Positions 34,196 to 37,946 of a stretch of DNA of 64,000 nucleotides are shown piece by piece. Source of the stretch: a virus; IMG/VR virus record IMGVR_UViG_3300031964_000784, one strand, 5' to 3'. The notes beneath the pieces were generated by a model. The model searched no databases. It was not told the DNA's origin and saw nothing but the letters and a program-made list of their open reading frames with translations. Within the stretch, counting starts at the first letter, position 1. Each line of letters starts with the position of its first letter. The position numbers and the translations under genes are program-made.

Positions 34196-34210
34196 GTCAC
34201 GACTGAGTTA
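34193..34210. promoter_or_regulatory. palindromic operator
   Basis: TAAGTCA-CGAC-TGAGTTA; TAA is a stop codon. Confidence 0.75.
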
Positions 34211-34264
34211 AGCAAGCGGGTAAAACCGCTTGCAATCAATCAAATCACTATAGGTTATACCATC

Positions 34265-34441
34265 ATGTCAGATTTTTACTTTGTCGCGCTAATCGAAGTT
34301 TTAAACGAATCGCAAGACCATGCAAACGTATTGCGAGCGCGCGAACAGATCAAAGCGAACCGGGTGGAGGCGATCAAGCGCGCACAGATCAAGCAAAAAG
34401 AATATCTTCAAAGAGATTTCACAGTCATCGATAAGAAGTAA
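34265..34441 (+). CDS. small hypothetical protein
   Basis: 58-aa ORF (below track cutoff). Confidence 0.45.
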   Translation: MSDFYFVALIEVLNESQDHANVLRAREQIKANRVEAIKRAQIKQKEYLQRDFTVIDKK

Positions 34442-34461
34442 CAAAACAATGTCAAGTGAGA

Positions 34462-34479
34462 TAAATCATTAGTGACTTA
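34462..34479. promoter_or_regulatory. palindromic operator
   Basis: TAAATCA-TTAG-TGACTTA. Confidence 0.7.
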
Positions 34480-34705
34480 TACGCAACGCTTGACAGGTTG
34501 AATGAGGAAAGGGCTTGACGGGGCAGAGGAATGAAAGTCCTAGAAGGATTCAGGCCCCTTGGTGGCCCTGCCTTCCTCGTTCCGACCCTGGAAATGAGAC
34601 CCTTATAGAAATTCCGGGAAAATCCGCCGGAGACTCCTTATAGATTCTTGCCGCGTGCTAACATCTATCCGCGCTTTGCTCACTGACCCGCAGCCACGGA
34701 GAAAA

Positions 34706-35395
34706 ATGATTATGAAGCTGTTTTCAATATTGTCGGTACTGGCAACGCTCCCAATTCTTACCTCTTGCACAAAGCAACACGATGAATTTGTCGGCACCTG
34801 GGGCAACGAATGGATGGGAGGGACGGTACATTTCGTCGTAACCAAAGATGGCAGCGACTCATTTATCGTCAAAGAGGTGCTTTTGGAAAATGGGGCCATA
34901 ATTTCGACGAGCGTGGGCAAGGTCGTTAATGATCAACTTGTCTTGAATGATGGCACCGGACTGTTTGGTAAGTTTGCCTACTCACCCTCGGAAAATGCAT
35001 TGGTGGTTATTAATCAGCCGACTTCACCAATCTATCGTCGTGTAGCCACATTGACCGCGAGCGACATAAGCAACGCAAAAAAAGAGATCGACGTAATAGT
35101 AAAGCCAGCTTTTGTTGCAACTGGAACAGCTTGTTCGACAAACTTTCCAGGGGCGCCCGACATCAGCAACGCAGTCCTTGGGTTGCCTTCAGCGTCAAGT
35201 ATGTCTGGCGCGTATATTGATTCTGTTTTTACCGGAGGCACTGAATCTGAGCCGACAATAACAGTCACCTTTAAAACGATTGGAAATGCGCTCCCTGCTG
35301 GGCGAACCTTGGTCTATAGAGGAGTTTGTTCGACGACAGGTCTTGCGTGGACGGTTAGCGGCACTGGATTGGAAATATTGAACGCGAAGGGGTAG
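34706..35395 (+). CDS. lipoprotein with C-terminal type IV pilin-like globular domain
   Basis: Lipobox LTSC; NAVLGLPSASSMSGAYIDSVF...TITVTF...GRTLVY...GLAWT resembles pilin head. Confidence 0.6.
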   Translation: MIMKLFSILSVLATLPILTSCTKQHDEFVGTWGNEWMGGTVHFVVTKDGSDSFIVKEVLLENGAIISTSVGKVVNDQLVLNDGTGLFGKFAYSPSENALVVINQPTSPIYRRVATLTASDISNAKKEIDVIVKPAFVATGTACSTNFPGAPDISNAVLGLPSASSMSGAYIDSVFTGGTESEPTITVTFKTIGNALPAGRTLVYRGVCSTTGLAWTVSGTGLEILNAKG

Positions 35396-35397
35396 AC

Positions 35398-35592
35398 ATG
35401 ACGATGAGAACCTATACTTGGTATCGATGTACTTGCGGCCATCGTGGTGCCGTGGTCGTCAGCGAAAACGACCAGCCTTACTCCAAAATGTGGGAAAGTA
35501 CGAGCTTGAAGGAACTCGCCGGCACATCTGAACACCCTGTTTGCCCCAAGTGTAAAGCCGTCCTGTCCGCATCGAACATCGAACACGAATAG
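35398..35592 (+). CDS. small zinc-finger protein
   Basis: CTCGH...CPKC. Confidence 0.6.
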   Translation: MTMRTYTWYRCTCGHRGAVVVSENDQPYSKMWESTSLKELAGTSEHPVCPKCKAVLSASNIEHE

Positions 35593-35601
35593 GGAAATGC
35601 C

Positions 35602-35751
35602 ATGACGCGCTTTATTATCTACAGCATCATATATTCTGCAATTTTCTGGCTCCTCTTCCCGCCTGGTGACAAGTCCTACGCTATCGTCGGCGGACTGCTA
35701 GTTGCGGCGGTGTCGATAGGCGTCTCGAAGCTATTCAAAATCGGCAAATGA
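35602..35751 (+). CDS. small two-TM membrane protein
   Basis: RBS AGGGA; 49 aa, hydrophobic. Confidence 0.5.
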   Translation: MTRFIIYSIIYSAIFWLLFPPGDKSYAIVGGLLVAAVSIGVSKLFKIGK

Positions 35752-35989
35752 CGCAATGCGACGGCTCGCTCAGTCAGCCTCTTGTATTCCCTCATGGCCT
35801 CGCCCAACATAAGCAGCGGGCCGTCGCCATACCAATCCTCGGTACAAACGGAGCATCCGAGAAAAGCCCCAGGATTTCCGTCGACTGACGCCTCTTGTAC
35901 GATCACCACGGAATAGCCATTAACTTGCGGAGTGATCGCGGTCAATTTTCGATTCATGTTCAATTTCGGTGTTTCCTGAGTTCCGCACA

Positions 35990-36322
35990 TCAGCAGCCAA
36001 TCCTTCGCAAGAAGAAATAATAGACCCACATTACCAATAACAATAGCCCGTAGATCAGAGTGGGCCGGACGCGTCGCGCACGATAGGATCGTATTGCCCC
36101 AACCACCAGAAGACCCAATATCAGTATCCCGGTAAGCGGAACAAAGATATCGGACATGTCGTCGCTTTCGGTTGGAAGATCGCAAAACGTCGTTACCTTG
36201 CCGTCATGAACCTCGCCCTCGAAAGCGTCGTATGGTGAGGTTGTCCCAATGAGTATAAGCAGCGCCACCAATAACGAGTATATTGGCGCGATTAGGGCCA
36301 TTAAGAATTTACGAACTTTCAT
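35990..36322 (-). CDS. three-TM immunity-like protein (DUF2645/YjeO-like)
   Basis: TM-loop(C...DD)-TM-TM with C-terminal W.YYFFLRRIGC. Confidence 0.6.
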   Translation of the reverse strand: MKVRKFLMALIAPIYSLLVALLILIGTTSPYDAFEGEVHDGKVTTFCDLPTESDDMSDIFVPLTGILILGLLVVGAIRSYRARRVRPTLIYGLLLLVMWVYYFFLRRIGC

Positions 36323-36323
36323 A

Positions 36324-37022
36324 TTAGATTCCCAGCAACCCTGTTACTTCCATGCGATGCTCCATCATTGACCTACCGTATGATGACCATTCGCGCTTCA
36401 GCGTATCTTTCGGTGAGGCCATTGAGTCTTTCAAATCCTTTATTGAGCGTGCCGTCCCTCGGTTATAGCGAATCCCCGCCACCATAAATTGCTCATCAGT
36501 AAGTCTGCGTGTATTGGCTGTTGGGTAGTCACGCAAAATCGTCTGCCGCAGGAACTTCGCTACAACGTCGATATTGAACACATCAGTTTCAAGACAGTCA
36601 GTCAGCTCTCCTTGCTGCTCACGAGTTAATGGCGCACCTTTGTAACCCATAGCCGATAATGCATTCCTTAACTGAATCTTGATCGCCCCTTCAGACGTTG
36701 CCATTGGATCACCCGTTCCTGGTACATACTGACGCAGAGGCAGGGCGAAATGATGTTTAATGTAAGGAGCCTTTCCACCAGCTTCATTGTAAGCGACGCA
36801 CCCGAGAAGATCGGGGGGTATCTGCTGCAAATTTGCCGAATAAAGTATCCGCAATTTGTTATAGGACACCCACGCCCTTTTATACGCCCATATTTGCTGC
36901 ATGCCGCCATGTGTATGTAGCCATTTCCAGTTTGGCGTAGCCCTCCCCGAGATCATTTGCCAAGTTGTCCATTTCGGAAAATTTTGCGGGGTGTACGTAC
37001 AAAATTGGTTCGAGTCTGCCAT
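36324..37022 (-). CDS. lysozyme-like fold antibacterial effector (T6SS cargo-like)
   Basis: IPPDLLGCVAYNEAGG, TSEGAIKIQLR, FNIDVVAKFL, GIRYNRG. Confidence 0.6.
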   Translation of the reverse strand: MADSNQFCTYTPQNFPKWTTWQMISGRATPNWKWLHTHGGMQQIWAYKRAWVSYNKLRILYSANLQQIPPDLLGCVAYNEAGGKAPYIKHHFALPLRQYVPGTGDPMATSEGAIKIQLRNALSAMGYKGAPLTREQQGELTDCLETDVFNIDVVAKFLRQTILRDYPTANTRRLTDEQFMVAGIRYNRGTARSIKDLKDSMASPKDTLKREWSSYGRSMMEHRMEVTGLLGI

Positions 37023-37256
37023 TGTCGTTTAACCATCGAAAGTAAAATTTTCGCTATTATACTTGGCTTTTCGACAATTGTTCACCTGTCATAAATGACA
37101 GGCTGCAATACACTGCCGCCGCAGATCGTTGCAGCACAAGCCGGCACGCACTTTCGCCATTACTTGCGCGTATATCAGAAACGCAATACAATGAAGCCTG
37201 ACAGAAGTGACGCACGGGGTCGTTCCCCTATTAAGGTTTCATGGAGTCCGCACTGT

Positions 37257-37329
37257 ACCACCGTCTTCCAAAGGATAGGCTGCCTCCCTAACGAAGAGGA
37301 GAATACCGGTTCGAGTCCGGTCGGTGGCG
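37257..37329 (+). tRNA. degenerate tRNA (Arg-like body; anticodon loop reads AAC or expanded ACG)
   Basis: Acceptor CCACCG/CGGTGG, perfect T-arm ACCGG-TTCGAGT-CCGGT, D-loop GGATAG; weak D-stem, mismatched anticodon stem, no CCA. Confidence 0.65.
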
Positions 37330-37384
37330 CTTTTACAATAAGGCAGGGCCGCATCCAGCAATGGGCGCGTTTCGTTAATCCCTA

Positions 37385-37490
37385 GATCAGTGGGGGCTTG
37401 CCGAATAAATTGATCAAGTTGACAGGGAAAAATGCATTCCGTGGTGGTGACTACTGCAAACGGAGGCAAGTCGTATAGTTATGCTTTTCC
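37385..37490 (+). ncRNA. candidate structured RNA downstream of tRNA
   Basis: Nested helices and an 8-bp GGCTTGCC/GGCAAGTC cross-pairing. Confidence 0.3.
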
Positions 37491-37493
37491 AGG

Positions 37494-37522
37494 GCGCCCT
37501 TCTTAACCGGAGGGCGCTTTTT
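37494..37522 (+). terminator. intrinsic terminator
   Basis: GCGCCCT-N10-AGGGCGC-TTTTT. Confidence 0.75.
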
Positions 37523-37538
37523 ACTTTCTGGCAACGCT

Positions 37539-37841
37539 ATGCTCGCTCGCGTCACACAATTCAGATATCGGGGCGTTCGCCGATCAGACCATGACATCAC
37601 CAATGACCCAGGCGTTGTTGGCAAGGTTTCCCTTTATTCCGTCGCAAACTACCTCCAGATGACGGTCTGCGACCCGAATGACGTTGGCATAGCGCACCTG
37701 TTGCTACCCGCCTTGTTCGAGCCGGTCGTCTTCAACATCATCAATGGCGGCATGCTCTTTCGCGGCTACCAGCGCGAGGGTGAGGGCAAGCACATGCCAA
37801 CATACTTCCAGGAGTGGCGTGTCGAGCCACTCCCACGCTAG
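37539..37841 (+). CDS. hypothetical protein
   Basis: LLPALFEP...FRGYQR...YFQEW.VE pattern recalled from prophage hypotheticals. Confidence 0.6.
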   Translation: MLARVTQFRYRGVRRSDHDITNDPGVVGKVSLYSVANYLQMTVCDPNDVGIAHLLLPALFEPVVFNIINGGMLFRGYQREGEGKHMPTYFQEWRVEPLPR

Positions 37842-37946
37842 GCGCCCATAATACCGATATTATCCGCTCCTTAAATACGTTTACACTGAAATACAGAAAG
37901 GCGCATAATCGTCTTTCCTCATTATCGTAAATGCAGAAATGGAGAA

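Follow-up and report, generated by a model that had tools for sequence, protein, structure and literature searches.

Type IV pili serve in DNA uptake, motility and adhesion and are major receptors of phages, and mobile elements have repeatedly evolved means to disable or disguise them. The phage-encoded tools known to act on these pili include the cytoplasmic inhibitors Tip, Aqs1 and Zip and the membrane peptide PfsE. Pilins require a prepilin leader, Phe1, Glu5 and the alpha1-N segment for their processing and for building the filament core. Llp of phage T5 and Cor of phages phi80 and N15 are outer-membrane lipoproteins with a demonstrated function in superinfection exclusion, exerted by blocking the receptor FhuA. 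Pilus-subunit homologues are also carried by phages, and the phage-encoded P-FimU and P-PilA block pilus-dependent phages (Sztanko et al., Cell Rep 2026; PMC12952977), while a truncated P-PilA consisting of the N-terminal 60 residues has been proposed to be an assembly inhibitor or poison (PMC12952977).

The window analysed here, the whole 64,000-nucleotide stretch of IMG/VR record IMGVR_UViG_3300031964_000784, is classified from its sequence as an SSU5-like phage-plasmid and has been seen in peat metagenomes only. The gene under study, which codes for the 229 aa protein P0001 (Table 1), sits on a phage-plasmid and not in an integrated prophage. It is a 'moron'-type cargo gene of this element, located in a lineage-specific island with a GC content of 0.495, as opposed to 0.542 for the window. 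The island is missing from the closest relative found, which is in a Massilia genome: its genes have no match in the syntenic interval there, nor beside parA in a betaproteobacterial MAG. Both P0001 and the profile of its N-terminal domain are absent from the five genomes with related phage-plasmids, and a PF00114 pilin is encoded in all five. P0001 is known from one phage lineage, in which the contigs of four sequencing runs do not differ from the window in the parts that they cover; the runs containing the element are DNA runs of peat metagenomes, with no RNA runs listed, and JGI 3300029951 and 3300029910 are among the peat metagenomes with the element.

Direct reading of the window places the start of the P0001 frame at the ATG at 34706 and its stop codon at 35393-35395. 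The GGAG ribosome-binding site is spaced 4 nt from this ATG and 10 nt from an alternative ATG at 34712, and gene callers used this second ATG, two codons later, on identical metagenome contigs, yielding a 227 aa version of the same protein (P0002). Scanning for promoter and terminator consensus sequences near the gene returned none above the shuffled expectation. The ATG of a zinc-ribbon-like ORF occurs 2 nt past the P0001 stop codon, and this ORF is probably co-transcribed with the P0001 gene; no PHROGs or PADLOC family was found for the hydrophobic mini-ORF that lies beyond it. The P0001 signal, MIMK-LFSILSVLATLPI-LTSC, fits the lipobox pattern [LVI][ASTVI][GAS]C of SPase II substrates, and the signal peptide contains the sole hydrophobic stretch of the protein (residues 5-22). 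In the 29 aligned relatives of the N-domain the lipobox Cys21 is invariant and position -1 is always occupied by A, G or S. P0001 is consequently a predicted Sec/SPase II-type lipoprotein, with lipidation expected at this cysteine.

Table 1. Features of the P0001 gene, the encoded protein and the surrounding cargo island (positions in the window)
Feature	Coordinates	Strand	Basis
Lineage-specific cargo island, from conserved 276-aa gene to parA	34200..37900	.	GC, synteny
GGAG ribosome-binding site	34698..34701	+	Read from sequence
CDS of the 229-aa lipoprotein-pilin-head fusion P0001, stop included	34706..35395	+	ORF reading
Predicted lipoprotein signal peptide, residues 1-21: n-region MIMK, hydrophobic core, L-T-S-C	34706..34768	+	Sequence, alignment
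N-domain, residues 22-114, predicted eight-stranded small beta-barrel of an unnamed small-lipoprotein family	34769..35047	+	phmmer, model
Linker, residues 115-117 within ATLTASDIS, from the ..YRRV lipoprotein end to the pilin helix	35048..35056	+	Alignment A3, model
Pilin alpha1-C helix, residues 118-144, Cys143 near its end	35057..35137	+	Model, VIA-align, alignment A4
Pilin alpha-beta loop and four-stranded head, residues 145-229, Cys208, Trp215	35138..35392	+	Alignments, profile, model
64-aa CxC...CxxC zinc-ribbon-like ORF	35398..35592	+	Called on contig L003; weak sub-threshold Pfam zinc-finger match
49-aa hydrophobic two-segment mini-ORF	35602..35751	+	Called on contig L002

An exhaustive phmmer search against 1.8 billion representatives assigned the N-domain to a family of small, roughly 110-aa lipoproteins, with P0003 (E 8e-29, 50% identity) and about 28 further relatives. 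In the AlphaFold2 model this domain is predicted to form a barrel, the strands of which span residues 30-112. By language-model features (0.90), the N-domain lies closest to DUF3876 (PF12992), a family of small proteins of similar length that are mostly found in Bacteroidota. DUF3876 was rejected as the identity of the N-domain, being a language-model lead with few shared features, and none of the members of alignment A3 matches PF12992 (hmmscan E<=1). The stand-alone relatives in alignment A3 stop at the R-R-V position, directly ahead of the short linker in P0001.

Beyond this linker, the relatives of P0001 are proteins with pilin heads. In the same phmmer search the C-domain matched P0004 (E 3.8e-17), the canonical GFTLIE prepilin P0005 (E 1e-14) and about 45 more pilin heads, which were aligned at their residues of about 42-135. 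The PF00114 gathering score is passed by the nine C-domain relatives that were scanned, and N_methyl (PF07963) or the class III motif is present in P0005, P0012 and P0015. A profile of the C-domain family finds the K122-4 pilin structures of Pseudomonas aeruginosa (1qve and 1hpw, E 4e-9) and matches 80 of the 400 genomes of the class searched. C143, C208 and W215 are invariant columns in alignment A2 (47 sequences). The canonical pilins found share at most 44% identity with the C-domain, so that it was not recently copied from any of the pilins sampled. The near-invariant K-Y-(L/W)-P-K tail has been lost together with its proline, as P0001 ends in ...GTGLEILNAKG where the relatives end in ...KYLPKx. 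Searches with the whole protein against Pfam, including PF00114, and NCBIfam returned no match even at E<=10. The combined MAFFT alignments A1 and A5 were discarded, as N-domain relatives were misplaced onto the C-domain, and the smaller interleaved alignment A4 was used instead, although it puts the last ~7 residues of these relatives in the wrong place.

The MSA-based AlphaFold2 model of P0001 has a mean pLDDT of 83.5 and shows, in its C-terminal part, a helix (residues 118-144) followed by four strands, with the head strands at residues 171-218 modelled at a pLDDT of about 90; the single-sequence prediction (pLDDT 42) was uninformative. VIA-align superposes the model on 1qve with a Z of 11.2 and an rmsd of 2.8 A over 109 residues, pairing model residues 117-229 with residues 25-144 of the pilin. 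Sequence comparison and predicted fold together identify the C-domain as the alpha1-C helix and head of a type IVa major pilin. By both homology and the model the helix starts at the equivalent of pilin residue 25-30, so that the domain junction falls at about the position where pilins are usually cut in structural biology to render them soluble. The hydrophobic alpha1-N (pilin residues of about 1-25) is absent from P0001, no G-F-T-L-I-E class III motif occurs in all 229 aa and there is no PF07963 match. By what is established about pili, P0001, which lacks the class III leader, Phe1, Glu5 and alpha1-N, can neither be processed by prepilin peptidase nor join a filament.

The three-part reading in the initial annotation, of a lipoprotein signal, a beta-rich N-domain and a pilin globular domain, was right on both sequence statistics and fold. 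Its LTSC lipobox is backed by the conservation around Cys21, its beta-rich N-domain by the predicted eight-stranded barrel, its C-terminal pilin-head match by the phmmer, profile and fold results, which put the resemblance well outside chance, and its two C-domain cysteines by their invariance in the family, while its deduction that a protein without the prepilin helix cannot polymerise agrees with the missing motif and alpha1-N. The word 'headless' was wrong, as the head is present and it is the stalk that is absent. Comparison by Foldseek and with PF00114, which had been put forward as a check on the pilin domain, was borne out for the fold, the best Foldseek matches being type IV pilins (prob 1.00), but not for the Pfam model, which the query itself does not match.

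No second example of a lipoprotein barrel joined to a pilin head was found by phmmer among the 1.8 billion representatives, and in a word-indexed homologue search P0001 only finds itself. Neither tblastn of P0001 nor megablast of the locus against phage records yielded a match, and the same was true for megablast of the locus against plasmid records. No relative was detected in a scan of IMG/VR with P0001, and nothing was found for it in BFVD, PHROGs or PADLOC (E<=0.01 for PADLOC-DB and PHROGs). A literature search retrieved no paper on a lipoprotein-pilin-head fusion, a DUF805-pilin protein or an exclusion lipoprotein of SSU5-type phage-plasmids. The absence of a Pfam, NCBIfam, PHROGs or PADLOC model, of a phage, plasmid or BFVD match and of a paper fits the earlier claim that the architecture is undescribed, and a lipid-anchored barrel carrying a stalk-less pilin head would be, by the databases and literature searched, a design not described before.

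Pilin heads on other anchors were nevertheless recovered. The protein closest to the C-domain, P0004 (45% identity, BLASTP E 8e-25), is not a prepilin but carries its head on a DUF2939 anchor, and the two heads are sister taxa nested among canonical prepilins (support 98/84). Further anchored heads occur in the DUF805-Pilin proteins P0044 and P0048 and in the polytopic membrane-pilin fusions P0041, P0055 and P0062. Pilin heads have been moved to non-prepilin anchors several times. The contexts of P0041 and P0044 are ordinary chromosomal ones with no link to pili or phages.

The reading we prefer, to which we assign a probability of roughly 0.4, is that P0001 is a pilin mimic that may interfere with type IV pili or with pilus-dependent entry of phages or DNA. 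Lipidation of Cys21, followed by Thr and not Asp at position +2, would send the protein to the outer membrane of its diderm, probably betaproteobacterial, host, and the Cys143-Cys208 pair would be oxidised in the periplasm. The tethered, monomeric head could then mimic a pilus subunit and bind whatever recognises pilin heads, the candidate targets being the periplasmic pilus machinery or secretin passage and the growing fibre. The head might also act as a decoy for receptor-binding proteins of phages that depend on pili, but only if it is exposed on the cell surface, as a phage outside the cell would never meet a decoy that faces the periplasm. Pilus function would be lowered or altered, and with it pilus-dependent infection or DNA uptake, such that the resident phage-plasmid would gain superinfection or entry exclusion. 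The decoy or assembly poison for superinfection exclusion suggested in the initial annotation would be interference of this kind, which is plausible given that phage-encoded P-FimU, P-PilA and truncated P-PilA are known (PMC12952977).

Several observations were weighed in arriving at this estimate. Counted against a pilin mimic were the identity of at most 44% to canonical pilins, the lost K-Y-x-P of the tail and the status of P0001 as a singleton of one phage lineage, the fact that the published phage pilins need to become part of the pilus in order to act, as P0001 cannot, and the occurrence of DUF805 and similar anchored heads in chromosomal contexts unlinked to pili or phages. Counted in its favour, besides the architecture, were the stalk-less head of the sister protein P0004, the location in a low-GC cargo island of a phage-plasmid, the relaxases, integrases, Rep3 gene and phage-like gene arrays beside N-domain relatives, and the PF00114 pilins in all five genomes with related elements.

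It is possible, if doubtful, that the pilin fold is a generic binding module unrelated to pili, the barrel being the constant anchor of a mobile-element accessory protein and the C-domain its exchangeable specificity module, with a role in entry or surface exclusion, in immunity to or inhibition of a periplasm-acting enzyme, or as an adhesin. The N-domain stands alone in about 27 relatives and is followed by another, Cys-rich C-terminal domain in P0008 and P0020, the former without a Pfam match, as would be expected for an anchor with exchangeable partners. Four of the six genomic contexts of N-domain relatives that were read are mobile-element-like, and the neighbouring genes include relaxases, integrases, a Rep3 gene, phage-like gene arrays, TIR and a defence-like islet. 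The structural neighbours of the N-domain also include lipoprotein inhibitors and immunity proteins, namely potempin E, a T6SS immunity protein and Tp0435, and the repeated appearance of chromosomal pilin heads on non-prepilin anchors, unrelated to pili, points in the same direction. However, VIA-align pairs the N-domain with lipocalin-, avidin- and potempin-type barrels at intermediate scores (Z about 8), which may reflect no more than a common barrel, no partner is known, and the C-domain is specifically a well-conserved major-pilin head, which reaches 44% identity to canonical pilins and has kept the invariant residues.

An evolutionary accident, in which a small lipoprotein gene recombined with the 3' part of a pilin gene to give an unselected chimera, whether expressed or silent, is improbable. 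Such an origin would account for a singleton among 1.8 billion representatives that was found, with identical sequence, in a single phage lineage, for the loss of the conserved C-terminal tail and for the position in a variable cargo island. Against it, the junction lies exactly at both domain boundaries with a short linker, both domains have confident folds and retain their invariant residues, and the gene has an intact frame, a ribosome-binding site and a closely abutting downstream gene. Moreover, P0004 keeps the same stalk-less head elsewhere, and the retention of the head on a different anchor in this sister protein argues for selection for a stalk-less head.

A lysis function as an o-spanin or unimolecular spanin, which a phage-encoded outer-membrane-type lipoprotein with a lysozyme-like gene 1 kb away on the opposite strand might bring to mind, is very improbable and was rejected on anatomy. 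P0001 has no C-terminal transmembrane segment, as a u-spanin requires, and no adjacent or embedded i-spanin, its neighbours being the zinc-ribbon ORF and the 49-aa ORF; its 229 aa with two globular domains are unlike o-spanins, and no PHROGs spanin family is matched. Least credible of all is a role as a replacement pilin, built into the pilus of the host so as to hide it from phages, for although P-FimU and P-PilA set a precedent (PMC12952977) and the head is homologous to major pilins, this is contradicted by a sequence anatomy with a lipobox signal and barrel in place of the class III signal, Phe1, Glu5 and alpha1-N.

Returning to the pilin mimic, a lipid-anchored, non-polymerising head would, if this reading is true, be a mechanistically different tool, a mimic of a receptor subunit acting from the outer membrane or periplasm. 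We tentatively suggest, as an unlikely extension, that stalk-less heads tethered at the outer membrane constitute a new class of mobile-element antagonists of type IV pili, which would act by jamming the secretin or the fibre in the periplasm or by sequestering the pilus-binding proteins of phages. This class would belong to a wider sensor or decoy group of 'anchored pilin heads', comprising the DUF2939-, DUF805- and lipoprotein-linked forms in bacteria and their parasites. P0001 draws attention to these uncharacterised bacterial proteins with pilin heads on non-pilin membrane anchors and, if its function is confirmed, would provide a compact natural reagent with which to probe the parts of the machinery that recognise the pilin head.

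Among the known systems, the type IVa major pilins of PF00114, such as K122-4 PilA (1qve, 1hpw), have in common with P0001 the alpha1-C helix packed on a four-stranded antiparallel sheet, whereas the leader, Phe1, Glu5, alpha1-N and K-Y-L-P-K tail are missing from P0001 and an SPase II lipobox and barrel are present instead. Engineered delta-N pilins are cut at the same point of alpha1 as P0001, but are artificial. A man-made vaccine antigen, the Protein E-PilA fusion of non-typeable Haemophilus influenzae (6gut), likewise combines a stalk-less PilA with a beta-rich domain taken from a lipoprotein; its PilA part matches the P0001 C-domain with a Z of 9.6, while the N-terminal domains are unrelated. 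The DUF2939-, DUF805- and polytopic pilin fusions place a PF00114 head behind a non-prepilin anchor as P0001 does, with transmembrane helices where P0001 has a lipid. Llp and Cor, which act on the receptor pathway of their own phages, are phage-encoded outer-membrane-type lipoproteins as is P0001, but they bind and block FhuA rather than copy a receptor, and P0001 matches no PHROGs family. P-FimU and P-PilA are likewise phage-borne pilus-subunit homologues, for which protection against pilus-dependent phages has been proposed or demonstrated; they keep the prepilin N-terminus and are, or could be, incorporated into the pilus, whereas P0001 is predicted to be lipid-anchored and unable to polymerise. 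The truncated P-PilA is a stalk without a head, and P0001 a head without a stalk.

The C-terminal half of P0001, the 229-aa protein under study, is a real pilin head, as judged from sequence profiles and a structural model. The whole protein has no match in Pfam or NCBIfam, and phmmer against the PDB yielded only a marginal match (E 0.5), to a fusion of MBP with PilA. When 1.8 billion cluster representatives were searched exhaustively with phmmer, approximately 45 proteins matched residues ~121-225, most of them 140-155 aa in length and aligned at their own residues 42-135. They include the canonical pilin P0005 (E 1e-14), which, like P0012 and P0015, has GFTLIE behind a short N-terminal leader and scores above the gathering threshold for both PF07963 (N_methyl) and PF00114 (Pilin). 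A profile of 47 aligned heads matches two structures of the P. aeruginosa K122-4 pilin, 1qve and 1hpw, over the whole domain (E 4e-9), and the two cysteines and one tryptophan invariant in this family correspond to C143, C208 and W215 of P0001. In the AlphaFold2 model, derived from a 24-row alignment (mean pLDDT 83.5), the C-terminal domain comprises a long helix (118-144) and four strands (171-218). Its top Foldseek matches in the PDB are the Neisseria PilE, K122-4 and Acinetobacter PilA pilins (probability 1.00). In the Foldseek-independent VIA-align search the top match is 1qve (Z 11.2, rmsd 2.8 Å, 109 residues), with model residues 117-229 aligned to pilin residues 25-144. The pilin resemblance and the two cysteines reported for this region in the initial annotation are thus borne out, also by the Foldseek comparison it had proposed.

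The same annotation had called the domain headless, a term that should be replaced by stalk-less, as the head is present and the stalk is missing. It was right that the prepilin helix is absent: the P0001 sequence contains no leader, Phe1, Glu5 or hydrophobic alpha1-N. Cleavage and methylation by PilD, extraction by the assembly platform and packing in the filament core require a class III leader and alpha1-N. P0001 has neither and, on established pilus biology, can therefore undergo none of these steps. The C-terminal K-Y-L-P-K tail of the family is likewise not found in P0001 in the 24-row alignment. D-W-K-Y, encoded by the last codons of the +1 shifted frame at 35370-35395 just before a stop, could be a faint remnant of an old pilin tail or mere chance.

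The first ATG of the P0001 gene is preceded by GGAG at a distance of 4 nt, and a 227-aa version (P0002), starting from the ATG two codons later, is the choice of the gene callers on identical metagenome contigs. The N-terminus (MIMK-LFSILSVLATLPI-LTSC, with the lipobox cysteine at position 21) reads as a textbook lipoprotein signal. Across 29 aligned relatives of the N-terminal half, the Cys21 column is invariant, position -1 is A, G or S in 29/29 and position -3 is mainly Leu, in agreement with the lipobox originally annotated. The residue following the lipobox Cys governs lipoprotein sorting in proteobacteria (the Lol rule); in P0001 this is Thr, and outer-membrane sorting is thus predicted in a proteobacterium.

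Residues ~10-113 are matched by approximately 29 proteins in the exhaustive search, the best being P0003 (E 8e-29, 50% identity). Most of these relatives are lipoproteins that stand alone, measure 101-121 aa, share a conserved C..K..E.F.GTWSN motif and stop where P0001 has YRRV. The family, which includes P0003, P0006-P0010, P0013, P0014, P0018, P0020, P0021, P0025 and others, is without a name in its source records, and no member has a meaningful Pfam match. A language-model search pointed to DUF3876 (0.90), an assignment which found no support in hmmscan and is retained as a lead. The N-domain is modelled with eight strands, in line with its earlier description as beta-rich, and VIA-align retrieves only generic small beta-barrels (Z ~8), among them the lipocalin-like C-domains of D-aminopeptidase-type enzymes, Tp0435, potempin E, avidins and a T6SS immunity protein; these matches may reflect a common fold only. 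A different Cys-rich C-terminal domain is carried by the relatives P0008 and P0020, and the barrel thus behaves like a carrier on which C-terminal modules are exchangeable. The genomic contexts of six relatives were read (Table), and members of the family are often located on mobilisable or integrative elements.

The best match to the C-domain, P0004 (299 aa; 45% identity over 101 residues, BLASTP E 8e-25), is not a prepilin, consisting of a DUF2939 N-terminal region, which includes one membrane anchor, and a PF00114 head. P0001 and P0004 pair as sisters (98/84 support) and nest among canonical prepilins such as P0005, P0034, P0012 and P0042 in a maximum-likelihood tree built from the 47 heads; the stalk-less phage head thus shares an ancestor with this one bacterial anchored head. 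Anchors of other non-prepilin types appear in further parts of the tree, with DUF805 in P0044 and P0048 and other polytopic regions in P0041, P0055 and P0062. On the well-supported branches the anchor type must have changed at least twice, and pilin heads have thus on more than one occasion been recruited to membrane-anchored proteins that do not polymerise. The genes for P0044 and P0041, where contexts were readable, lie in ordinary chromosomal surroundings. PF00114 heads behind non-prepilin anchors were observed in P0004, P0041, P0044, P0048, P0051, P0055, P0062 and P0078 (loci L029-L031), and no literature on such proteins was found. P0005, the closest canonical pilin, is encoded by the second gene of a tandem PF00114 pilin pair (L004:3609-4610) in a chromosomal context with no adjacent pilB, pilC or pilD.

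The window encodes RecA-like and SbcCD-like proteins, a class II RNR, ThyX, a UvsW-type helicase, ParA, ParB and a large terminase. The last shares 62% identity with the terminases of Salmonella phage SSU5 and its relatives, which identifies the window as an SSU5-like phage-plasmid. By terminase identity, the closest genome relative found is a 113-kb contig of Massilia sp. TN1-12 (81%), followed by elements in a Betaproteobacteria MAG, a Paraburkholderia MAG and an Acinetobacter genome (73-74%); that the host is betaproteobacterial is no more than a reasonable guess. A PF00114 pilin is encoded in each of the five genomes carrying related phage-plasmids, and none of them has a detectable relative of either P0001 or the N-domain family. 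P0001 is a singleton from uncultured material, recorded solely on metagenome contigs of uniform gene order. Where labelled by organism, the runs containing the DNA of the window are peat metagenomes, and contigs from four are identical to it. The conserved 276-aa gene upstream of the P0001 gene and parA are separated by 3.75 kb in the window versus ~1 kb in the Massilia element, and the intervening genes are matched neither in the syntenic Massilia interval nor next to parA in the Betaproteobacteria MAG. Together with the low GC content, this places the P0001 gene in a lineage-specific cargo island beside the partition locus. Both small ORFs downstream are called as genes on the metagenome contigs and neither belongs to a family, while the phrog match of the lysozyme-like protein indicates that it recurs in phages.

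Table. Features of the P0001 cargo island and contexts of six N-domain relatives
Sequence	Position	Strand	Feature	Remarks
Window	34200-37900		Cargo island	Between 276-aa gene and parA; GC 0.495 vs 0.542 for window
Window	34706-35395	+	P0001 ORF	Intact, 229 codons
Window	35398-35592	+	64-aa CxC...CxxC zinc-ribbon-like ORF	ATG 2 nt past P0001 stop
Window	35602-35751	+	49-aa hydrophobic two-segment ORF	After zinc-ribbon-like ORF
Window	35990-36322	- (opposite to P0001 gene)	DUF2645 gene	Neighbour of lysozyme-like gene
Window	36324-37022	-	232-aa lysozyme-like protein	phrog_11932 (function unknown), E 7e-26
L006			N-domain relative	Adjoins TrwC relaxase and TIR gene
			N-domain relative	Flanked by MobA-type relaxase with NikA and by integrase
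L007			N-domain relative	Island with integrase, TIR, Rep3
L042			N-domain relative	Phage-like array, small ORFs
L040			N-domain relative	Small islet with NTase-substrate-binding gene and caspase-like gene
L041			N-domain relative	Ordinary chromosomal setting

The preferred, tentative interpretation of P0001, at a probability of roughly 0.4, is that of a putative pilin mimic that would disturb pilus biogenesis or use through a partner recognising pilin heads. It would be exported by Sec, lipidated at Cys21 and sorted to the outer membrane, with the C143-C208 pair oxidised and a monomeric head shown on a barrel-and-linker spacer. The head could engage the periplasmic pilus machinery, the secretin passage or the growing fibre or, if P0001 is surface-exposed, the receptor-binding proteins of pilus-dependent phages, and pilus-dependent phages or DNA would be excluded. 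Circumstantial points in favour are that the gene is cargo of a temperate element, that the carrier domain is associated with mobile elements and that relatives of the likely host are piliated. Against it count the distance to the nearest canonical pilin (at most 44% identical to the C-domain), the loss of the conserved pilin tail and the inability of a periplasm-facing decoy to meet an extracellular phage. Rather doubtful, in turn, is that the pilin fold is a mere exchangeable binding module on a mobile-element lipoprotein with some other role, for example in exclusion, immunity, inhibition or adhesion. That P0001 is a functionless chimera is improbable: its domains join cleanly, the invariant residues are retained, the fold is confidently predicted and the sister protein P0004 has another anchor. 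A role as spanin is very improbable for a protein with neither a C-terminal TM segment nor an i-spanin partner, and a replacement pilin entering the pilus, contradicted by the sequence itself, is scarcely credible.

Phage-encoded pilus subunits are already known, and two precedents lend the mimic interpretation circumstantial support: prophage FimU copies block pilus-tip phages, as demonstrated in 2026, and other phages carry full-length and stalk-only PilA-like genes (PMC12952977). The stalk-only forms may inhibit assembly, according to a proposal in the same paper (PMC12952977). No pilin head that is both lipid-anchored and stalk-less was found in the searchable catalogues or literature. A man-made Protein E-PilA chimera (6gut) is among the structural matches of P0001 and, curiously, an Adhesin_E gene (PF16747, Haemophilus Protein E family; L042:1916-2431) occurs in the phage-like L042 array, ~1 kb downstream of the N-domain member.
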